The notes under the pieces are model-generated. The model saw only the letters and a program-made list of their open reading frames with translations, did no database searches and was not told the origin of the DNA. Below, piece after piece: positions 1,008-10,485 of a DNA stretch of 24,974 bases. This DNA is from a virus. Its lineage: Duplodnaviria; Heunggongvirae; Uroviricota; Caudoviricetes. The stretch is taken from the IMG/VR virus record IMGVR_UViG_2778261162_000009. The stretch is one strand, 5' to 3'. Within the stretch, counting starts at the first letter, position 1. Each line of letters opens with the position of its first letter. Both the position numbers and the translations under genes were made by a program.

Positions 1008-1355
1008 TTACTTATCACATAAATCAAATGCAGCCTTAGTGACATCCCCCAGACTCTTTTTTAACCCTGGAGCGGCATCATTATCTAGCCAAAATGGATT
1101 ATTGTTATCTAACGGTAACGCACCAAATGTTTTACCTTTTATTCGAGCCAAACCTGTAAGTGCATATAACTTATTATCGTCAAAATTCATCACATAAGGA
1201 TTACCATCAAGACACTGTAATTGAACCTCATCAGTATTAAATGGCCATACCCCATTGAAACTCTCACGTTCAATAGTTTTAAAAGGCATTGCGACGGCGG
1301 AAAAAGAAAACATAGATAAAAAAGTAACTAATAGTTGAACCTTTTTTGCTTTCAT
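1008..1355 (-). CDS. Small secreted/periplasmic protein, 115 aa, unknown function (cargo gene)
   Basis: N-terminal signal peptide MKAKKVQLLVTFLSMFSFSAVA; two Cys in mature part; AT-rich; co-oriented with repressor operon; SD-like GAGG upstream. Confidence 0.6.
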   Translation of the reverse strand: MKAKKVQLLVTFLSMFSFSAVAMPFKTIERESFNGVWPFNTDEVQLQCLDGNPYVMNFDDNKLYALTGLARIKGKTFGALPLDNNNPFWLDNDAAPGLKKSLGDVTKAAFDLCDK

Positions 1356-1384
1356 ATCATTACCTCAATTTAGCTCAAGTAAGA

Positions 1385-2035
1385 TTACAAATTAAAAAAC
1401 GCCCTAGAAATGACACCGCCTACCAAAACCCCTACGCAGATAAAGAATATTATTTCTTTTGGATAAAGTCGGATTAATTCTGAAGCACGAAGTCGGACTT
1501 CTGGTAAGGTCGAACTCTCTGTGTGGCTTGATGCCGATTGTTGCTCTAACCACGACAATGCAGACTGTAACTGAGAACGAGTAAGATCGTTTAAACGTCC
1601 TGTACCGAAATTGATATGGCAATACCGCAGAAGTTTTTGTCGAAGTCCACAGTCTTCACTGTTACGTAGTAATAAACTTACAAGAGCCTTACAGGCATCA
1701 TGATCTTTACATCGCTCAAGCATTGCATGCAGAAAACTCTCCGCTGTTTTATATTGATTTACTGTCATATCATCAATACCAGCTACACCAATCTCCGCAT
1801 GTACTTTTTGCCAAATAATAAACGCTTCAGTATTGCTAGCTTCTGCAATAGCAGCAACCAAGCTATTTAGCTCCTTACGCTGAGCCTTAAGCAAAGGGCG
1901 ATCGTCATCATCATTATTCGAAGGGATTGCGATATTGACGGTATGAGAACCATCATATCGCTCTATCTGAATATTCTTTTCGTGAAAATCACGCCCAGCA
2001 ACGCGATTGTTTGAACCGTTTGAGTTGACGGCCAT
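1385..2035 (-). CDS. Tail-anchored membrane protein, 216 aa, unknown function (cargo gene)
   Basis: Soluble N-terminal domain then single C-terminal hydrophobic helix (IIFFICVGVLVGGVISRAFF); strong SD GGGAGGTG 5 nt before ATG; 16 bp after repressor stop. Confidence 0.6.
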   Translation of the reverse strand: MAVNSNGSNNRVAGRDFHEKNIQIERYDGSHTVNIAIPSNNDDDDRPLLKAQRKELNSLVAAIAEASNTEAFIIWQKVHAEIGVAGIDDMTVNQYKTAESFLHAMLERCKDHDACKALVSLLLRNSEDCGLRQKLLRYCHINFGTGRLNDLTRSQLQSALSWLEQQSASSHTESSTLPEVRLRASELIRLYPKEIIFFICVGVLVGGVISRAFFNL

Positions 2036-2050
2036 GTCACCTCCCTACTA

Positions 2051-2455
2051 TCACCTACCCTTAGTTTCGTTATAGTCACGACCAGCGATACGGTTATTAC
2101 CACCAGAAATATTTAACTCACGTCCTGATGGCTGAGTTTCCTTTTCACTGATCGCACCTTTTAAAGCCCCAATCACCGCGTTTTTCACATCTAACGAAGC
2201 TGCTCGAAAGCGAGTAATCAACTCCTGCTCATCATCGTTATAAGTTTCAGGTGAGTGAATTCCCAACACAACATACTGAACATCAAGGCCAAAACGAGAC
2301 AGCGCTGCCAAATACGCAGCATCAGGAAAGCTATCTCCTTTCTCATATCTAAGCTGAGTTAGCTTTTTGACTCCACCAATGTCGCTCATGGCAACTTGAC
2401 TAAGTCCCAATCTTTCCCTTTCCTCACGCAACCGCTGACCAATATCATTTTTCAT
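2051..2455 (-). CDS. XRE-family helix-turn-helix repressor, 134 aa (candidate immunity repressor, CI/C analogue)
   Basis: N-terminal HTH_XRE pattern (IGQRLREERERLGLSQVAMSDIGGVKKLTQLRYEKGDSFPDAAYLAALSRFGLDV); divergent from the rightward early operon. Confidence 0.75.
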   Translation of the reverse strand: MKNDIGQRLREERERLGLSQVAMSDIGGVKKLTQLRYEKGDSFPDAAYLAALSRFGLDVQYVVLGIHSPETYNDDEQELITRFRAASLDVKNAVIGALKGAISEKETQPSGRELNISGGNNRIAGRDYNETKGR

Positions 2456-4491: not shown

Positions 4492-4514
4492 GGTTACTGG
4501 ACAAAGGGGGCGCA

Positions 4515-4718
4515 ATGGCAATTAAGCATTTTCCCGTCGTTCGCTTTACCTCCAGAGGGCGCGAATACGAGGTCGACGAACGCCTGATTACCACTATCGA
4601 CAAACATCGTTCGGAAAAGGATGCACACCACATCTACCTCACTGACGGCACTTACTTCTGCGCCACCAACGTGGCGCGAGTAAATCTTATCCGACAGGTA
4701 CAGGAGCCACGCAGATGA
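4515..4718 (+). CDS. Hypothetical early protein, 67 aa
   Basis: GGGGG SD before ATG; operon orientation. Confidence 0.5.
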   Translation: MAIKHFPVVRFTSRGREYEVDERLITTIDKHRSEKDAHHIYLTDGTYFCATNVARVNLIRQVQEPRR

Positions 4719-4981
4719 CCGTTCTGGACTACATCGCTACTCATCCGGGGTGTAGCGGCGGAGAAATCGCCGCAGCACTGAATACCCCAACCACAGCTAT
4801 TAATGCTGAGTTACGCCGACTTTGGCGCAGCGGCTTAGTCATCAGAACAAACCGCAGCACAGGTGGTCGCGCTCGCAAAACTGGAGGCCAGGCTTCTTAC
4901 CACGTAAACCCGATGCCGTTCGGGTGTAGCAATCCACTTACTCACATGTTTAACCAGCTACTGAAGGAAGCCAGAACATGA
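4715..4981 (+). CDS. Hypothetical protein, 88 aa, possible winged-helix DNA-binding protein
   Basis: ATGA overlap with upstream gene; N-terminal helix pattern suggestive of wHTH (weak). Confidence 0.5.
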   Translation: MTVLDYIATHPGCSGGEIAAALNTPTTAINAELRRLWRSGLVIRTNRSTGGRARKTGGQASYHVNPMPFGCSNPLTHMFNQLLKEART

Positions 4982-5032
4982 GCACCATCAACCACCAGAA
5001 GCTACGCGAACTGGCATTTTGCCCTGCAACGA

Positions 5033-5278
5033 ATGGCAACTCCTCAAAAATTACTGGCATTTCGCGCAATGCTCTCGCCGTCTGCTGTGCTGGCACTGCT
5101 GGATCAGCTGGAGCACGCCAGAACCACGGCTCCTGCCATTCGCCTGACGCTCCATCATGAAATCGTTGATTTCTGCGCAACGCTGGGGGCACCTGGCGAA
5201 CCGGAAACGCCGGAAGCAATGCAGCAAGAGCTGCTGCAACGCATTGACAAGGTTTTTGATTTTTTTCTGAACCAGTAA
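5033..5278 (+). CDS. Hypothetical early protein, 81 aa (true start may be ATG 4978 if a T-run frameshift is corrected)
   Basis: Protein-like ORF; ATG 5033 lacks SD, whereas ATG 4978 is translationally coupled but in another frame. Confidence 0.45.
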   Translation: MATPQKLLAFRAMLSPSAVLALLDQLEHARTTAPAIRLTLHHEIVDFCATLGAPGEPETPEAMQQELLQRIDKVFDFFLNQ

Positions 5279-5299
5279 GAAACCAGAACATGCACACAC

Positions 5300-5328
5300 A
5301 AAAAAACCGCTTGCCATGCCGCAATCGG
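5300..5328 (-). terminator. Candidate intrinsic terminator on minus strand (imperfect 8-bp stem then U7)
   Basis: Plus strand A7 followed by CCGCTTGC-catgcc-GCAATCGG; reads as hairpin plus U-run on minus strand. Confidence 0.35.
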
Positions 5329-5400
5329 TCAGGTTACATTTCCGCTGCACCTCATAAAACGGGTGCCGGGATTCTCAACCCGATACAGAGCAAAGCGCAT

Positions 5401-5421
5401 AACCGCGCCAGCGGTTTTTTT
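5401..5421 (+). terminator. Candidate intrinsic terminator on plus strand (AACCGC-gcca-GCGGTT then T-run)
   Basis: 6-bp stem with 4-nt loop followed by TTTTTTT seen directly. Confidence 0.4.
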
Positions 5422-5600
5422 GTGCGTACTGTATTGCCACGTCTTTTTCGCGTCAGAATTATGGCGGGGCGTACGGGGCCGACTTCGGTCGGGCCGGATT
5501 CTTTGCTCTCCGGTGTTGAGAACCCTGTACGTCTCGCCACCCCGAGATTCTCAACTCTGGATGGTGAGCTATTTCTATCACCGAGCAAAGAGGCCACACC

Positions 5601-5831
5601 ATGGCAAACCGCAAACAACAGCGCGCATACGCTGCGCGTCGTCACATCCAGACTGAAATCAACCGTAGACTTTTCCGCGCATCACGCGTCGCGCAAATCA
5701 TGCACATCAATATGCTGCATGAGCGCAGCCACGCGCTATCGAACATCTATTCCGCCTCTGTTTTCAGCTATCTGCCGGATGATCTGCGCGAGCTGCAACA
5801 ACTCTTCCAGCAGCAAAACAAACTCCATTAA
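5601..5831 (+). CDS. Hypothetical early protein, 76 aa, basic N-terminus
   Basis: ORF with AAAGAGG upstream; operon orientation. Confidence 0.5.
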   Translation: MANRKQQRAYAARRHIQTEINRRLFRASRVAQIMHINMLHERSHALSNIYSASVFSYLPDDLRELQQLFQQQNKLH

Positions 5832-5903
5832 TTCCTGTTCCGGGCCTTTCCTGCACCTTACGGCGGGAGGCCTTCGCACATCTGTAGTAAAGAGAATTGC
5901 AGC

Positions 5904-6293
5904 ATGATTGACGCTCATGACTTCACAAGATGGGTGCGCACACAGGACACCCGTCTGGCTCCCGTTCTTCAGGGATTATTTGATCTCTACATCCGTGGCC
6001 GTGACAACAGAGCACGCACCACAAAACCAGAGAATGCAGACACCCTTTATTTCACAGTAGACGACTGCTACCGCGTGGACTTCACACCACACGGGCTGGC
6101 GTTGCACTGCCTGACACCACACGGAGGATCACTGCTAGCGTATTACGACTCCCCGGCCTCCGTATTTGCGGCAATGCTGGCGCATTGCACTGCTGGCGGG
6201 TGTGCCTCGCTGAGTGAATACACCGCTGAATTTAACCGCCTTTCTGCCCTCTTCTCGCAGGAGTGGCAGCGCGTGACGGGATACCAGCCATGA
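5904..6293 (+). CDS. Hypothetical early protein, 129 aa
   Basis: ORF immediately upstream of and overlapping gene A start. Confidence 0.5.
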   Translation: MIDAHDFTRWVRTQDTRLAPVLQGLFDLYIRGRDNRARTTKPENADTLYFTVDDCYRVDFTPHGLALHCLTPHGGSLLAYYDSPASVFAAMLAHCTAGGCASLSEYTAEFNRLSALFSQEWQRVTGYQP

Positions 6294-9130
6294 GTGAGTT
6301 TGCATGGAGCTGGAATGAACCACGGCCAGCCATTGATCCGGCCAGATTTACGGAGCACAGGCAGGAAACTGAAACCGACCTGCAACGCGCCATCCGTTAC
6401 TACCTTGAGGCAGACAAAAAGGCTCTGGAAGAACAGGAAGCGAAGGAGGAAGCCTTTTTCGCACAATCCACCGTGGGTAAAAAACTCATGGCATCCCTTG
6501 AGGAAGCCGGACAGCGTGAAAAGCTGGCACAAAGCATCATCAGCAATCGTCAGGCAACAGAACAAGACCCGGTGGCCCGTGCTTTTGCCACACTGAAGGT
6601 GCTTCCCGTTTATCTGCGTGAACCTCTGAGCCACCACCTCTCTTTCCTGCGCAAAAAACAGGAAGCCGATCGCCAGAAAGGCAAAAAGAGCTGGCAGGCT
6701 GAACGCTACGCGCGCGGAACCCTGCGCAAAATATTCGAACGTCTGGACCGCACCGATCACCGCTGGCTGACACCGGGTTATCGCTCCCTTGCCGGACGCG
6801 AACGCCTGGACGATTTGCTTTACCTGCCGCAGCTCAACAAACACCAGATACAGACGCTGGCCACCATGACGGCGGCGATGTTCAGCAGCACCTTCGAAAA
6901 ACTCTGCGATGGCTTTGGCGCGACTGATGGCGAACTGACCATGGATGTAACGCTGAAGGCGTATCAGATGCTGGCCCGCATGGCGTTACACCTGCACGCC
7001 ATGCCTCCACATTATGACGCACTGACAACAGACAAAGACCGGAGGAACGAACCGGACACGGAGCTGCTGCCGGGCGCAATCCTTCGCCTGACCTGTGCGG
7101 AATGGTGGAAACGCAAACTGTGGCTGTTACGTTGCGAGTGGAGAGAAGAACAACTCCGCGCCGCCTGTCTGGTTTCCAGAAAAACATCACCCTATCTGAG
7201 CCAGGACGCGTTAAGCGAGTTTCGCGCACAGCGCGAGAAAACACGCGATTTCCTGAAAAGTTTCATGCTGGAAAATGAAGACGGGTTCACGATTGATCTC
7301 GAGACGGTGTATTACGCGGGAGTAAGTAACCCGGTTCACCGTAAGGCAGAAATGATGGCCACCATGAAGGGACTGGAACTTCTGGCCGAAGCCCGTGGCG
7401 ACAGAGCGGTGTTTCTGACTGTCACCTGCCCGTCAAAATACCACGCAACAACGGAGAACGGTCATCCGAACCCCAAATGGAACGGGGCCACCATGCGCGA
7501 CTCCAGCGATTACCTGGTTAACACGTTTTTTGCGGCGGTCCGCAAAAAACTGAACCGCGACGGTCTGCGCTGGTATGGCATCCGCACGGTGGAGCCTCAC
7601 CATGACGGCACTGTGCACTGGCACATGATGGTCTTTGCACATCCGGACGAGATTGAAACCATCGTGTCCCACGTCTGCGATATTGCCATTCAGGAAGACC
7701 GCCACGAGCTGGGCGATGACATAACTCCGCGTTTTAAGGCGGAGTACGTAGACGGCTCAAAAGGCACACCAACCAGCTACATCGCCACCTACATCGGAAA
7801 GAACCTGGACAGCCGCGCCGTGGATGGCATCGACCCGAAAACGGGCAAGCCACGCGTTGACCACGAAACCGGAAAATCAATGGCCGAGAGCGTGGAACGC
7901 GCCATCGGCTGGGCGCGCCTTCACCGGGTCCGCCAGTTCCAGTTCTTTGGTATCCCCTCCCGTCAGGTGTGGCGTGAACTGCGTCGCCTTGCCAGCCAGA
8001 TGGCACGCAACCCGGAAGGCCCGCAACGGCTGAAGGATGACGCAATGGACGCGGTACTCGCTGCCGCTGATGCCGGATGTTTTGCCACCTACATTGAGAA
8101 ACAGGGTGGCGTACTTGTTCCACGCAAGGACTACCTGATTCGCACCGCCTACGACCTCGCAGATGAGCTGAACGATTACGGCGAACAGAGCGTACAGATT
8201 TACGGGATCTGGTCACCACTCATCGGGGAGTCTTCCCGTGTGTGCACACATCCGGATAACTGGAAGCTGGTAAGACGTAAACCGGAAGCGGAAGACAGCG
8301 CCCGCGAAAATGGTTTTGACCTTCAGGGCGGCCCTGCCGCCCCTTGGACTCGTGGCAATAACTGTCCCCGTGTACAGGAAACGGACAACAACGGGACAGA
8401 ACAGCCGGAAGAACGGCCAGCACCGTGGCCGCAGCTTCCTGACGGCGTTGATGTGGATGAATGGATGCGCTCACTGAAACGGCACGAACGCCGGGCGCTG
8501 ATGCGTTCGCTTCGTGACAAACAGGCAAAAAACAGCAGTGATGAAATGCAGAGCTGGACACAGAGCCGCAAACAGCAGCGGCCTTTGCCTGATAACTACG
8601 AATTACTCGCTAAAGAATGGCGGGAATCTGCCGAATCTCTCGGCCTGCATATCGGTGAACAGCAGATGCAGCACCTGTTACGGGGCGGCAGCCTGTACGT
8701 TGACGGCAGCATCATTGCACCGCAGGGATTTGAAATTGTACGCAAACCGGATACCCGCCCGGACAGCCGAATCACGCAGCTCTGGCAGCGCCTGAGCCGT
8801 AATCACGGCGTAAGCAGCACAGAGATCCGCCATAACCCGGTCGCCAGCTATCTGGAACAACTGGGGGCATCAGACCCCGAAGCCGCCGCACGTCTGGCAT
8901 CCACACTTCAGCAGGACCAGAACACCATGAAAACCCCCGTTACCGTGCTTTCTGACATGCTGCGCGCCATCCGTGACGCAGAGCACGCACAGAGAATCAG
9001 TGAAACCACTGAACGCGCCCACCGCAAAGCAGACCTGCTGCGGGGTAGCCTGACCAGTGGAAACAAAAAACAGACAGAAACGGGACTCACAAATCCCGTA
9101 AATGAGCAAAAAACGCGCCGCGATATATGA
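6290..9130 (+). CDS. A: Replication initiation protein, P2 gpA-like rolling-circle endonuclease, about 946 aa
   Basis: Motif VEPHHDGTVHWHMMVF (HxH metal-binding motif of gpA family) and YIATYIGKN (catalytic Tyr region); start ATG 6290 overlaps upstream stop. Confidence 0.88.
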   Translation: MSEFAWSWNEPRPAIDPARFTEHRQETETDLQRAIRYYLEADKKALEEQEAKEEAFFAQSTVGKKLMASLEEAGQREKLAQSIISNRQATEQDPVARAFATLKVLPVYLREPLSHHLSFLRKKQEADRQKGKKSWQAERYARGTLRKIFERLDRTDHRWLTPGYRSLAGRERLDDLLYLPQLNKHQIQTLATMTAAMFSSTFEKLCDGFGATDGELTMDVTLKAYQMLARMALHLHAMPPHYDALTTDKDRRNEPDTELLPGAILRLTCAEWWKRKLWLLRCEWREEQLRAACLVSRKTSPYLSQDALSEFRAQREKTRDFLKSFMLENEDGFTIDLETVYYAGVSNPVHRKAEMMATMKGLELLAEARGDRAVFLTVTCPSKYHATTENGHPNPKWNGATMRDSSDYLVNTFFAAVRKKLNRDGLRWYGIRTVEPHHDGTVHWHMMVFAHPDEIETIVSHVCDIAIQEDRHELGDDITPRFKAEYVDGSKGTPTSYIATYIGKNLDSRAVDGIDPKTGKPRVDHETGKSMAESVERAIGWARLHRVRQFQFFGIPSRQVWRELRRLASQMARNPEGPQRLKDDAMDAVLAAADAGCFATYIEKQGGVLVPRKDYLIRTAYDLADELNDYGEQSVQIYGIWSPLIGESSRVCTHPDNWKLVRRKPEAEDSARENGFDLQGGPAAPWTRGNNCPRVQETDNNGTEQPEERPAPWPQLPDGVDVDEWMRSLKRHERRALMRSLRDKQAKNSSDEMQSWTQSRKQQRPLPDNYELLAKEWRESAESLGLHIGEQQMQHLLRGGSLYVDGSIIAPQGFEIVRKPDTRPDSRITQLWQRLSRNHGVSSTEIRHNPVASYLEQLGASDPEAAARLASTLQQDQNTMKTPVTVLSDMLRAIRDAEHAQRISETTERAHRKADLLRGSLTSGNKKQTETGLTNPVNEQKTRRDI

Positions 9131-9206: not shown

Positions 9207-10166
9207 ATGAAAATTTGTATCGACGACGGCTCCACCAACATCAAGCTGGCATGGACTGAGAACGGCAAACGCCGCAACGCCATCAGCCCGAACAGCTTCA
9301 AGTCGGAATGGTCTGCGCCGTTCGGTGGCACGCAGCCCGCGAACTACATGCTTGATGGCGTGCGCTATGGCTTTGATCCGGTCAGCGATCGCTTTGTCCA
9401 GACGACCGACACGCAATACCAGTACAGCGATGTGAATGTCATTGCCATTCATCACGCGCTGGTCAAATCAGGCATCACGCCACAGGAGGTGGATGTGGTT
9501 GTCACCCTGCCACTGAGCGAGTATTTCGACACAAACGCACAGCCGGACATGGCCAACATCAGCCGCAAAAAAGCGAACGTTATGCGCCCGGTGGAGTACC
9601 AGAACGGCGAAGCATTCACTATCCGTAACGTACGGGTTATGCCTGAATCCATTCCGGCTGGCTTTAAGGCACTGGCTGACATGAGTCCGTTTGAATCCCT
9701 GCTGATTGTGGATTTGGGCGGAACCACGCTGGATGTGGCAAAGGTTCAGGGGCAACTGGCAGGTATTAGCCAGGTGTTTTGCGATCCACACGTAGGCGTT
9801 TCTCTGATGGCCGATGCCGTACTGTCGGTGATGGCCACTAACGGTATGCGTACCAGTCACCACATCGCCAATACCATTATCGAACATCGCCATGATGAAG
9901 CCTGGCTGCGCCAGCACATCCACAATGACGCGCATTACGCCAGCCTGATGGCGGTTATTCGTGAAAAGGAAGAAACACTGAAACAACGCGTGATCCGCGC
10001 GCTGGCGGTTTTTTCGGGTTACGGGCGGGTGATGGTTGTCGGTGGCGGGGCGGAGATTGTGGCACCCGCTATCCGCGAAGCCTGCGGAGTTAATGCGACT
10101 TTCATCGCGGACGGGGTGCCACAGTTTGCTCTGGTTAATGGGCTGTACGCAATGGACAAGGAGTAA
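9207..10166 (+). CDS. parM: ParM/StbA-like actin-type ATPase, 319 aa
   Basis: Strong resemblance to plasmid R1 ParM from memory: MKICIDDGSTNIKLAW, SPNSF, YSDVNV…HHAL, VMPESIPAG, DLGGTTLD, VGGGAE, LVNG. Confidence 0.85.
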   Translation: MKICIDDGSTNIKLAWTENGKRRNAISPNSFKSEWSAPFGGTQPANYMLDGVRYGFDPVSDRFVQTTDTQYQYSDVNVIAIHHALVKSGITPQEVDVVVTLPLSEYFDTNAQPDMANISRKKANVMRPVEYQNGEAFTIRNVRVMPESIPAGFKALADMSPFESLLIVDLGGTTLDVAKVQGQLAGISQVFCDPHVGVSLMADAVLSVMATNGMRTSHHIANTIIEHRHDEAWLRQHIHNDAHYASLMAVIREKEETLKQRVIRALAVFSGYGRVMVVGGGAEIVAPAIREACGVNATFIADGVPQFALVNGLYAMDKE

Positions 10167-10170
10167 ACCA

Positions 10171-10485
10171 ATGACGACACCAACCAGACGGATAAGTTTC
10201 TATCTGAAGCCAGCTGCAGTCAAGAGTGAACGGGAAGCGTGTAATTATCTCGACAGCCTGCCAGCCTCCGAACGCAGCCGCGCGCAACGCGCGGCATTTC
10301 TGGCTGGACTGGCACTCATTAAAAACGATCCTGCCTTTGCTTACTGGCTGGCTGAATGGTCAGAGGGGGAAAATATGCCTGCCAACAATCACATATGGGG
10401 CTGGCATAACAGCGAGCCTGCTGGTTGCAAAAATCAGAATATAAGTCAAATAAAAAAGAATATTCAGGAATTTTTTCCTGAATGA
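10171..10485 (+). CDS. parR: ParR/StbB-like partition adaptor, about 104 aa
   Basis: RRISFYLKP…LDSLPASERSRAQRAAFLAGLAL matches ParR N-terminal RHH region; AGGAG SD; directly downstream of parM. Confidence 0.65.
   Translation: MTTPTRRISFYLKPAAVKSEREACNYLDSLPASERSRAQRAAFLAGLALIKNDPAFAYWLAEWSEGENMPANNHIWGWHNSEPAGCKNQNISQIKKNIQEFFPE

Follow-up and report, generated by a model that had tools for sequence, protein, structure and literature searches.

The 24,974-nucleotide stretch of viral DNA analysed here (IMG/VR record IMGVR_UViG_2778261162_000009; "the window" always means this whole stretch) contains an island of 321 bases, 5280–5600, bounded by an early-operon gene that ends at position 5278 and a 76-codon gene that starts at 5601. 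We read this island, with a probability of roughly 0.85, as an RNA immunity cassette of the P4/P1 type (seqA, CI RNA and seqC in P4; c4 in P1), situated in a P88-like, P2-family prophage of Escherichia coli. The reading is carried by full-length matches of the plus strand to two Rfam families, isrK and C4, and by six short elements in and around these RNAs which change together among relatives and stay complementary. RNAs of the P1 c4 and P4 CI families, together with the way they act, have been familiar since around 1990, and nothing described here is new in kind. A description of the cassette in P88-like or P2-like phages was not found in literature searches, which is not proof of absence.

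The match of the island and its flanks (window 5200–5900) to P88-like Peduoviridae places the DNA in a P88-like phage of the genus Xuanwuvirus in the P2 family. The island is present in 1178 of the 5426 complete E. coli genomes. Of the 25 E. coli RefSeq records listed, 24 carry no annotation over it, and the remaining one is a 14% partial match that overlaps an Icd-like gene. In the RefSeq record of phage P88_4B11 (NC_049391; 4091–4708, plus strand) the RNA island is annotated as a coding sequence for a 205-amino-acid "transcriptional regulator", while the record of P88 itself (NC_026014; 5033–5221, minus strand) has a coding sequence for a "hypothetical protein" over the C4 gene. In strain 300709 the island is 100% identical to that of the window, and E. 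coli NCTC9022 has it in identical form too.

Two RNA scaffolds on the plus strand

Rfam covariance models were run against the whole window, and a match was counted as a hit when it reached the curated gathering score or better. Exactly two hits were obtained, both on the plus strand and both covering the full model. The isrK family (RF01394, gathering score 50) was matched with 62.8 bits and E = 1.8e-11, and the C4 family (RF01695, gathering score 45) with 78.5 bits and E = 4.3e-14 (model positions 1–87 of 87). Such a scan had been proposed in a preliminary description of the island, which suspected a structured small RNA, probably encoded on the minus strand. The structured small-RNA locus is borne out by the two families, but its strand is not, as both match the plus strand and the G–U pairs described below fit that strand as well. 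Matches below threshold to CRISPR-DR33, STnc410 and Hrs13 were set aside as chance, and a weak match to c4-a1b1 (15.9 bits) overlaps the isrK match and merely restates it.

In the case of the IsrK-like RNA, the counterpart of P4 seqA, hairpin 1 is formed by 5347–5366 and hairpin 2, which presents target a1 in its loop, by 5367–5382. A terminator scan independent of Rfam found a plus-strand terminator at 5401–5421 (AACCGC-GCCA-GCGGTT followed by a T-run). The preliminary description had already recognized it, and by its position it is the predicted end of the IsrK-like RNA. The fold of this RNA (−24.2 kcal/mol, z = −3.1) reproduces the family structure, and its helices are 99–100% paired in 20 relatives.

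The C4 match begins 35 nucleotides after this terminator. Its closing stem (5462–5478 with 5523–5539) surrounds two hairpins. Hairpin 1, CCGAC-TTCG-GTCGG at 5479–5492 with a cUUCGg loop, is the very CCGAC-UUCG-GUCGG hairpin that had been singled out earlier as a stable tetraloop. Hairpin 2 (5493–5514) carries a 12-nucleotide loop that holds element b′, and element a′ lies in the single-stranded 3′ junction. The minimum-free-energy and centroid structures are identical and family-shaped (−47.6 kcal/mol, z = −4.9). All 27 pairs of C4 are 100% paired in the 20 relatives, two of them with compensatory double changes, and the intramolecular scaffold helices as a whole are 99.9% paired. A check for compensatory substitutions had likewise been suggested, and among the relatives it gave both kinds of signal, conserved scaffold helices and co-varying recognition helices. 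Alignment to the annotated P1 C4 RNA indicates that the mature molecule probably extends from about 5463 to 5541 (79 nucleotides); the RNase-P-type end sequences are common to it and the annotated mature P1 C4.

Recognition elements and their co-variation

Following the P1 convention, the two elements within C4 are named a′ and b′, and their targets upstream and downstream a1/b1 and a2/b2 (Table 1). The a elements had been noticed earlier as a motif occurring three times with a 9/10 dyad, and the copies are indeed there: GATTCTCAAC stands at 5370–5379 and again at 5546–5555, the latter copy beginning 2 nucleotides past the C4 match, and GTTGAGAACC, its reverse complement in 9 of 10 positions, stands at 5515–5524. 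The 8-mer core, TTCTCAAC, has exactly three copies in the 24,974 bases counted on both strands, all of them within 184 bases, where 0.64 would be expected over the whole window. A second triple, which had escaped the preliminary description, is formed by GAGCAAAG at 5388–5395 and 5583–5590 and its complement CTTTGCTC at 5501–5508. The Shine-Dalgarno sequence AAGAGG that lies under b2 sits 7 nucleotides before the ATG at 5601.

Prediction of whole-molecule duplexes between C4 and its flanks was uninformative, since it unfolds the scaffold, and the pairs were therefore counted explicitly on an alignment of 20 variants (17 pairs upstream and 18 downstream). In this alignment the scaffold is almost invariant apart from six hypervariable patches, and these are a1, b1, b′, a′, a2 and b2. 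The b1–b′ helix is 98.9% paired and 7 of its 9 pairs have changed on both sides; in the b2–b′ helix pairing is 95% and 6 of 10 pairs have changed in this way. Pairing in the two a helices is lower, at about 85%, mainly because the outermost junction pair forms in only 6 of the 20 sequences and in part because three sequences have an insertion or deletion. Upstream, the covariation score was 0.65, and shuffles gave 0.13; downstream it was 0.56, and shuffles gave 0.12. None of 500 shuffles reached the observed covariation, and registers slid by 1–3 columns gave at most 0.18.

When viral contigs were searched for the invariant sequence of hairpin 1, 120 loci with 25 distinct combinations of loop and junction came to light. 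Complements of the loop and the junction, 7–10 bases long, were found at fixed offsets upstream and downstream in nearly every one of these 25 types. The exceptions are three types, two of which share a loop sequence, in which the exact match of the loop element is just 4–6 bases at one or both sites. The loop (b′) and junction (a′) modules were also seen to re-assort, one loop occurring with three junctions and one junction with at least nine loops. Since the six patches are interleaved on the DNA in the order a1, b1, b′, a′, a2, b2, a change of a single element would need several coordinated exchanges.

The inverted repeat 5515–5524/5546–5555 with its direct copy at 5370–5379 had suggested a dyad for a DNA-binding protein, and the copies of GATTCTCAAC might then be sites for a repressor of an internal promoter of the replication genes. 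Paired changes among relatives do not by themselves speak against such sites, as an inverted repeat in DNA would show them too. The intermolecular helices, on the other hand, contain G–U pairs, which are tolerated in RNA pairing and not in DNA symmetry; the other strand or a DNA dyad would have A–C mismatches at these places, and the G–U pairs thus point to recognition by RNA on the plus strand. Moreover, the repeats neither flank nor overlap the conserved promoter at 5311–5340, and they occupy loop or single-stranded positions of the two RNA scaffolds defined by the covariance models. The interleaved second set (GAGCAAAG) behaves alike, with one copy on a Shine-Dalgarno sequence, and the homologous elements of P1 are annotated as C4 RNA binding sites. 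We therefore take the copies for RNA–RNA recognition elements in single-stranded parts of the C4 and IsrK scaffolds and consider repressor sites very improbable. The comparative evidence for RNA–RNA recognition on the plus strand is as strong as such evidence gets.

Table 1. Features of the cassette and the genes around it (window coordinates; functional roles are predicted)
Feature	Coordinates	Strand	Sequence, basis or remark
205-codon frame, proposed counterpart of P4 eta	5290–5907	+	Spans the promoter, both RNA genes and, in another frame, the epsilon-like gene
Predicted cassette promoter	5300–5340	+	A-tract 5300–5306; −35 TTGCCA 5311–5316; 18-nucleotide spacer; −10 TACATT 5335–5340; predicted start near 5347
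IsrK/P4-seqA-like leader RNA	5347–5421	+	Rfam RF01394, full model
Target a1	5372–5379	+	UUCUCAAC; loop of IsrK-like hairpin 2
Target b1	5387–5395	+	AGAGCAAAG; just before the IsrK-like terminator
C4/P4-CI-like antisense RNA	5457–5544	+	Rfam RF01695, full model
Element b′	5499–5509	+	UUCUUUGCUCU; loop of C4 hairpin 2
Element a′	5515–5522	+	GUUGAGAA; single-stranded C4 junction
Target a2	5548–5555	+	UUCUCAAC; complementary to a′, 4 nucleotides past the end of the C4 match
Target b2	5583–5592	+	GAGCAAAGAG; up to 10 pairs with b′, on Shine-Dalgarno AAGAGG (5588–5593)
Epsilon-like gene (76 amino acids), homologue of P4 epsilon (helper derepression)	5601–5831	+	Predicted first gene under C4 control; Pfam, BLASTP, PHROG
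129-amino-acid gene	5904–6293	+	PHROG 3237 (function unknown); ATGA overlaps with the spanning frame and gene A
Replication endonuclease, P2 gene A family	6290–9130	+	Pfam Phage_GPA, 1.5e-129

Predicted promoter, spanning frame and genes probably under control

The preliminary description placed a minus-strand terminator, a hairpin with U7, at 5300–5328, convergent with the plus-strand terminator, and allowed for an internal promoter upstream of the replication genes. A promoter scan found a sigma-70-like site, TTGCCA-18-TACATT, with 9 of 12 consensus matches at the same place, and its −10 hexamer ends 7 nucleotides before the first base of the isrK model match. Two blocks of this site are invariant in the 20 relatives: AAAAACCGCTTGC, which comprises the A-tract and the −35 hexamer, and GGTTACA, which comprises GGT and the first four bases of the −10 hexamer TACATT. 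The 18-nucleotide spacer between the hexamers keeps its length, and its sequence was replaced outright in 5 of the 20 relatives, while 13 others have CAGT for CGGT. The internal promoter thus finds support as a predicted site at 5311–5340.

Read on the minus strand, the same bases do give an imperfect hairpin (5306–5329) followed by U7 (A7 at 5300–5306), with −11.4 kcal/mol and z = −1.94, and the sequence feature noted before, which ends at 5329, is real. Its fold is only marginal, as 11 of 200 shuffles fold as well, and among the relatives the predicted hairpin changes its shape and ranges from −3 to −12 kcal/mol. One of its arms is the variable promoter spacer and the other the invariant −35 block. 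For an intrinsic terminator on the minus strand one would expect a stable, G+C-rich hairpin with a U-run that persists among relatives, which is not what the comparison shows, and of the two supposedly convergent terminators only the plus-strand one is conserved. Because the hexamers are invariant and the hairpin-forming spacer is variable, we concluded from the sequence comparison that the feature at 5300–5329 is the predicted cassette promoter and not a minus-strand terminator.

These observations bear directly on the small RNA that was thought to run on the minus strand and to end at this hairpin and U7. It could draw on the existence of the hairpin and on the annotated minus-strand hypothetical coding sequence which P88 has over C4. 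The hairpin itself is no better than 11 of 200 shuffles and is conserved neither in shape nor in energy, with one arm in a spacer that is replaced in 5 of 20 relatives and weakened by CAGT in 13 more and the other arm in the −35 block. No minus-strand promoter-like site was found by the promoter scan in 4500–6500, both Rfam models match the plus strand only, and the 97-amino-acid open reading frame on the minus strand has no Pfam or PHROG family match. A minus-strand RNA of this kind is, in our judgement, about as improbable as the repressor sites.

The promoter scan returned a second promoter-like site, TTGCCA-17-AATTAT at 5434–5462, just before C4. Its −35 hexamer is TCGCCA or TCGTCA in most relatives, and its −10 hexamer lies within the conserved 5′ flank of C4. 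A start from this site would truncate the closing stem of C4, and it was therefore treated as not functional; to judge by the sequences, it is probably not a promoter.

The 205-codon frame that spans the island had been dismissed in the preliminary description, which saw no credible open reading frame here. This verdict has to be revised. Of 74 distinct variants, including distant ones in Rha-type elements and in true P4-like satellites, 72 keep this frame open, and stop codons inside the hypervariable patches number 0 in 223 codons of the spanning frame against 18 in 443 codons of the other two (Fisher p = 7e-4). Its ATG at 5290 lies upstream of the predicted start of cassette transcription, and its stop TGA (5905–5907) overlaps the ATG 5904 of the 129-amino-acid gene in an ATGA that was read directly. 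The start contexts of the upstream gene (4963–4980, AAGGAAGCCAGAACATG) and of the 205-codon frame (5275–5292, AAGAAACCAGAACATG) are near-duplicates, which speaks for genuine, though weak, initiation at the second of them. By analogy with eta in P4, the 205-codon frame is probably translated.

An open and probably translated frame raises the question of whether the island is simply protein-coding, with a functional, Ash-related (Pfam) product of 205 amino acids and RNA structures that are incidental. Besides the openness in 72 of 74 variants, the translation matches PHROGs 995, 821 and 6928 (1e-12 to 1e-16) and, weakly, the Pfam family Phage_ASH, and the frame is an annotated coding sequence in NC_049391. 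These protein families are, however, themselves conceptual translations of isrK–C4 regions. The P4 eta frame, for instance, matches Phage_ASH (PF10554) at 4.7e-23 over residues 40–164, and this part of eta is the conceptual translation of the isrK and C4 genes of P4. The hypervariable patches, too, change residues freely yet keep the RNA complementarity. In the overlap with the epsilon-like gene, variable columns number 54 of 77 at the third codon position of the epsilon-like gene, against 31 and 29 at the other positions, and this variation falls on the second codon position of the spanning frame. It follows that the epsilon-like protein is the conserved product and that the 205-codon frame keeps its openness alone. 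A functional 205-amino-acid protein with incidental RNA structures is accordingly highly improbable, if by a hair less so than the minus-strand RNA, and it would be the act of translation rather than the product that matters. A survey of P4-like satellites used PF10554 as a marker for epsilon (PMC8628076). True epsilon belongs to PF25738, and the marker in that survey may in fact track the RNA immunity region.

Downstream of b2, the 76-amino-acid product matches PF25738, the "Derepression protein family", with 29.9 bits against a cut-off of 27. Against P4 epsilon it shows 33% identity in BLASTP (E = 5e-9), and it matches PHROG 3688 at 8e-45. P4 epsilon inactivates the P2 repressor. The 129-amino-acid protein encoded next has no similarity to P4 ORF151. 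Its stop overlaps the ATG at 6290 of gene A, again in an ATGA read directly, and this start of gene A is the one given by the RefSeq annotation of its counterpart in the island-identical relative. Gene A probably profits from the control exerted further upstream. In the viral contigs, an epsilon-like gene adjoins the cassette in 21 specificity types, and for 17 of these the available sequence includes gene A as well. Of the other types, one stands before a Rha-family gene and two stand in P4-like satellites before kil. A tblastn tally by type showed that all 21 loci of the window's own specificity type have the epsilon-like gene and 20 of the 21 have gene A, and P4 markers were absent from them. 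The window was not searched for the P4 markers alpha, sid, psu and delta; a domain scan of nine genes around the island gave gene A and nothing P4-like.

Three further observations concern the element around the cassette. In the gene just upstream (4978–5278), the window reads TTTT at 5016–5019 where strain 300709 has TTT; the extra T splits a 99-amino-acid gene (PHROG 4144) into open reading frames of 60 and 81 amino acids, and the difference reflects a true frameshift or else a sequencing error in the homopolymer. As in P88, gene A is immediately followed by a ParM-type segregation gene (9207–10166) and a partition gene (about 10170–10485), which hint at a plasmid phase. The repressor side is mosaic: window 1008–2455 (minus strand) encodes a 134-amino-acid helix-turn-helix protein (2051–2455), the presumed repressor of this prophage, together with 216- and 115-amino-acid open reading frames; strain 300709, with its identical island, has a 103-amino-acid helix-turn-helix protein, and P88 has a P2 C-like protein. 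Because the repressor types of the window, strain 300709 and P88 differ, the RNA cassette and the protein repressor appear to assort independently.

Known systems, proposed mechanism and meaning

The closest likeness is found in P4, whose immunity region contains the same two Rfam families in the same order (PLE – seqA – cI/CI RNA – seqC – eta/kil – epsilon – alpha). Like the window, P4 has a promoter, a leader with one target in a loop and another before the terminator, an RNA that matches the C4 model and then both targets again, of which the second covers the Shine-Dalgarno sequence belonging to the first gene (kil in P4). The PLE hexamers TTGCCT...TATAGT stand at the place equivalent to the predicted promoter of the window, whose counterparts in P1 are P1c4 and P2c4. 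The eta frame of P4 (8821–8171, minus strand) starts upstream of the promoter and spans all features as the frame 5290–5907 does, and in both elements an epsilon homologue and a replication gene lie downstream. The differences are also clear. P4 is a satellite, whereas we take the element in the window for a phage of the P2 family, with gene A, ParM and presumably structural genes; the gene controlled first is kil in P4, in frame with eta, and the epsilon-like gene in the window, in another frame; the gap between terminator and C4 is 107 nucleotides in P4 and 35 in the window; and the recognition sequences differ.

In the case of the immI region of P1, the P1 record annotates promoters P1c4 and P2c4, targets a1/b1, a 77-nucleotide C4 RNA and a2/b2 just before icd. 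In the P1 sequence, as in the window, a pairs with the junction and b with the loop, and b2 lies at the ribosome-binding site. The C4 scaffolds of P1 and the window are strongly similar in sequence (GAAUUAUGGUGGGGCGU..., ...CCCUGUCACGUCCUGCCACC), and specificity varies among relatives in the same way as between the heteroimmune phages P1 and P7. The P1 promoter has an annotated C1 operator and none is evident in the window; the controlled genes are icd and ant in P1, and the epsilon-like gene followed by a replication gene in the window. In the anti-immunity system of the phage-plasmid N15, the CA RNA, a small processed RNA of this class, reportedly controls the anti-repressor antC by premature termination (Ravin et al. 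in 1999; N15 is also cited in PMC3632133). Systems of this sort have been noted in P1, P7, N15 and some lambdoid prophages (PMC3632133, PMC4825925, PMC10111431). P4 seqA and CI have structural homologues in IsrK and C4, respectively (PMC3632133), and the Rfam C4 and isrK models detect relatives of CI and seqA in satellites (PMC10111431).

By analogy with P1 c4–icd–ant and P4 CI–kil, the following sequence of events can be proposed. In the lysogen, the cassette promoter would be active and most transcripts would stop at the terminator (5421). Transcripts that read through would be processed to C4 of about 79 nucleotides, with RNase P acting at the 5′ end. C4 would then pair with a2/b2 on further read-through RNA and cover the site at which ribosomes bind ahead of the epsilon-like gene. 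RNA left untranslated in this way would be exposed to Rho-dependent termination, and the epsilon-like gene, the 129-amino-acid gene and gene A would be off. The IsrK-like RNA, with a1/b1, would be a perfect decoy for C4, which may either help termination, in the view taken of P4, or titrate C4 and tip the switch, in the view taken of Gifsy-1. After derepression, transcripts of the early promoter would enter from upstream and carry ATG 5290, and translation of the 205-codon frame would lead ribosomes across the terminator and the C4 targets, rendering expression insensitive to C4 as with P4 eta. The ATGA overlaps may finally hand ribosomes on to the 129-amino-acid gene and then to gene A. In P4, Forti et al. 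in 1999 (cited in PMC10111431) reportedly found that immunity-dependent termination is prevented when ribosomes translate eta on RNA that starts at the upstream promoter.

Several points weigh against our reading of the island and this scheme. Promoter activity, RNA ends, processing and repression are all inferred by analogy, as is Rho dependence, which sequence does not reveal, and the part played by a1/b1 is not firmly established even for P1 and P4. With an epsilon-like gene as the first under control, the cassette departs from both models, where kil or icd takes this place. The spanning frame is out of frame with the epsilon-like gene (5601–5831), whereas P4 kil is the in-frame end of eta; in-frame nesting of the first controlled gene is seen in Rha-type and P4-like relatives. 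Only a weak Shine-Dalgarno sequence (AAGAAA) precedes the ATG of the 205-codon frame, and coupling could be weakened by the one-base frameshift in the gene just upstream of it in this window. The case for an open frame is a statistical one (p = 7e-4), built on patches which, being mutually complementary, are not fully independent.

A different weighting of the same parts is offered by Gifsy-1 of Salmonella, where the arrangement isrK – orf45 (STnc1160) – anrP belongs to the same Rfam isrK family, yields a processed RNA of about 80 nucleotides and controls a gene of the anti-repressor type (PMC4825925). This processed RNA lies downstream of IsrK (PMC4825925), and lysogens of Gifsy-1 transcribe the two RNAs at a high level (PMC7067206). 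The published model has IsrK acting as a trans-activator with translational coupling via orf45 (PMC4825925), where the window has an epsilon-like gene and a C4 scaffold of the P1/P4 type. If this logic dominated here, the IsrK-like RNA would trans-activate by pairing with the C4 region, C4 would be mainly a cis element, and the pairing would open an inhibitory cis structure and turn on translation of the anti-repressor-like gene. The model is experimental and comes from a locus that matches the same Rfam family (PMC4825925). The a1/b1 targets would make the IsrK-like RNA a perfect competitor for a′/b′. Moreover, in the predicted fold of the unprocessed leader 5347–5620 (−107 kcal/mol, z = −4.6) the loop and junction of C4 are paired in cis to a2/b2, which recalls the alternative structures of the isrK–orf45 transcript of Gifsy-1 (PMC4825925). 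Against it stands the scaffold of a processed C4, with its closing stem and RNase-P-type ends as in P1, which is conserved with 100% pairing. C4 of P1 and CI of P4 are reported to be trans-acting immunity factors (Citron and Schuster in 1990 and Deho et al. in 1992, as summarized in PMC3632133). Dominance of the Gifsy-1 logic is possible, though we think it unlikely. The Gifsy-1 view and that of a trans-acting repressor are compatible with each other.

The cassette is found in about a fifth of complete E. coli genomes and lacks annotation in 24 of the 25 records listed, and phage records that annotate it give it as "hypothetical protein" or "transcriptional regulator". Its position in a P2-family phage, directly ahead of the epsilon-like gene and gene A, suggests that in these phages, as in P4, antisense RNA gates the anti-repressor and the start of replication. 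The co-varying specificity types make up a clean natural data set on the diversification of two-element RNA recognition and on prophage heteroimmunity. More tentatively, and with more doubt than confidence, P88-like phages of the P2 family, a kind of phage exploited by P4-like satellites, may carry the satellite's own cassette (C4/CI RNA, eta-like frame and epsilon-type derepression protein) before their replication gene, diversified into a combinatorial RNA immunity code; 21 combinations of loop and junction, with modules re-assorted, adjoin epsilon-like genes. If this were true, matching C4 specificities and epsilon proteins could allow a helper prophage and a satellite to read, block or trigger one another, and the epsilon-type protein would be the helper's own RNA-gated inducer.

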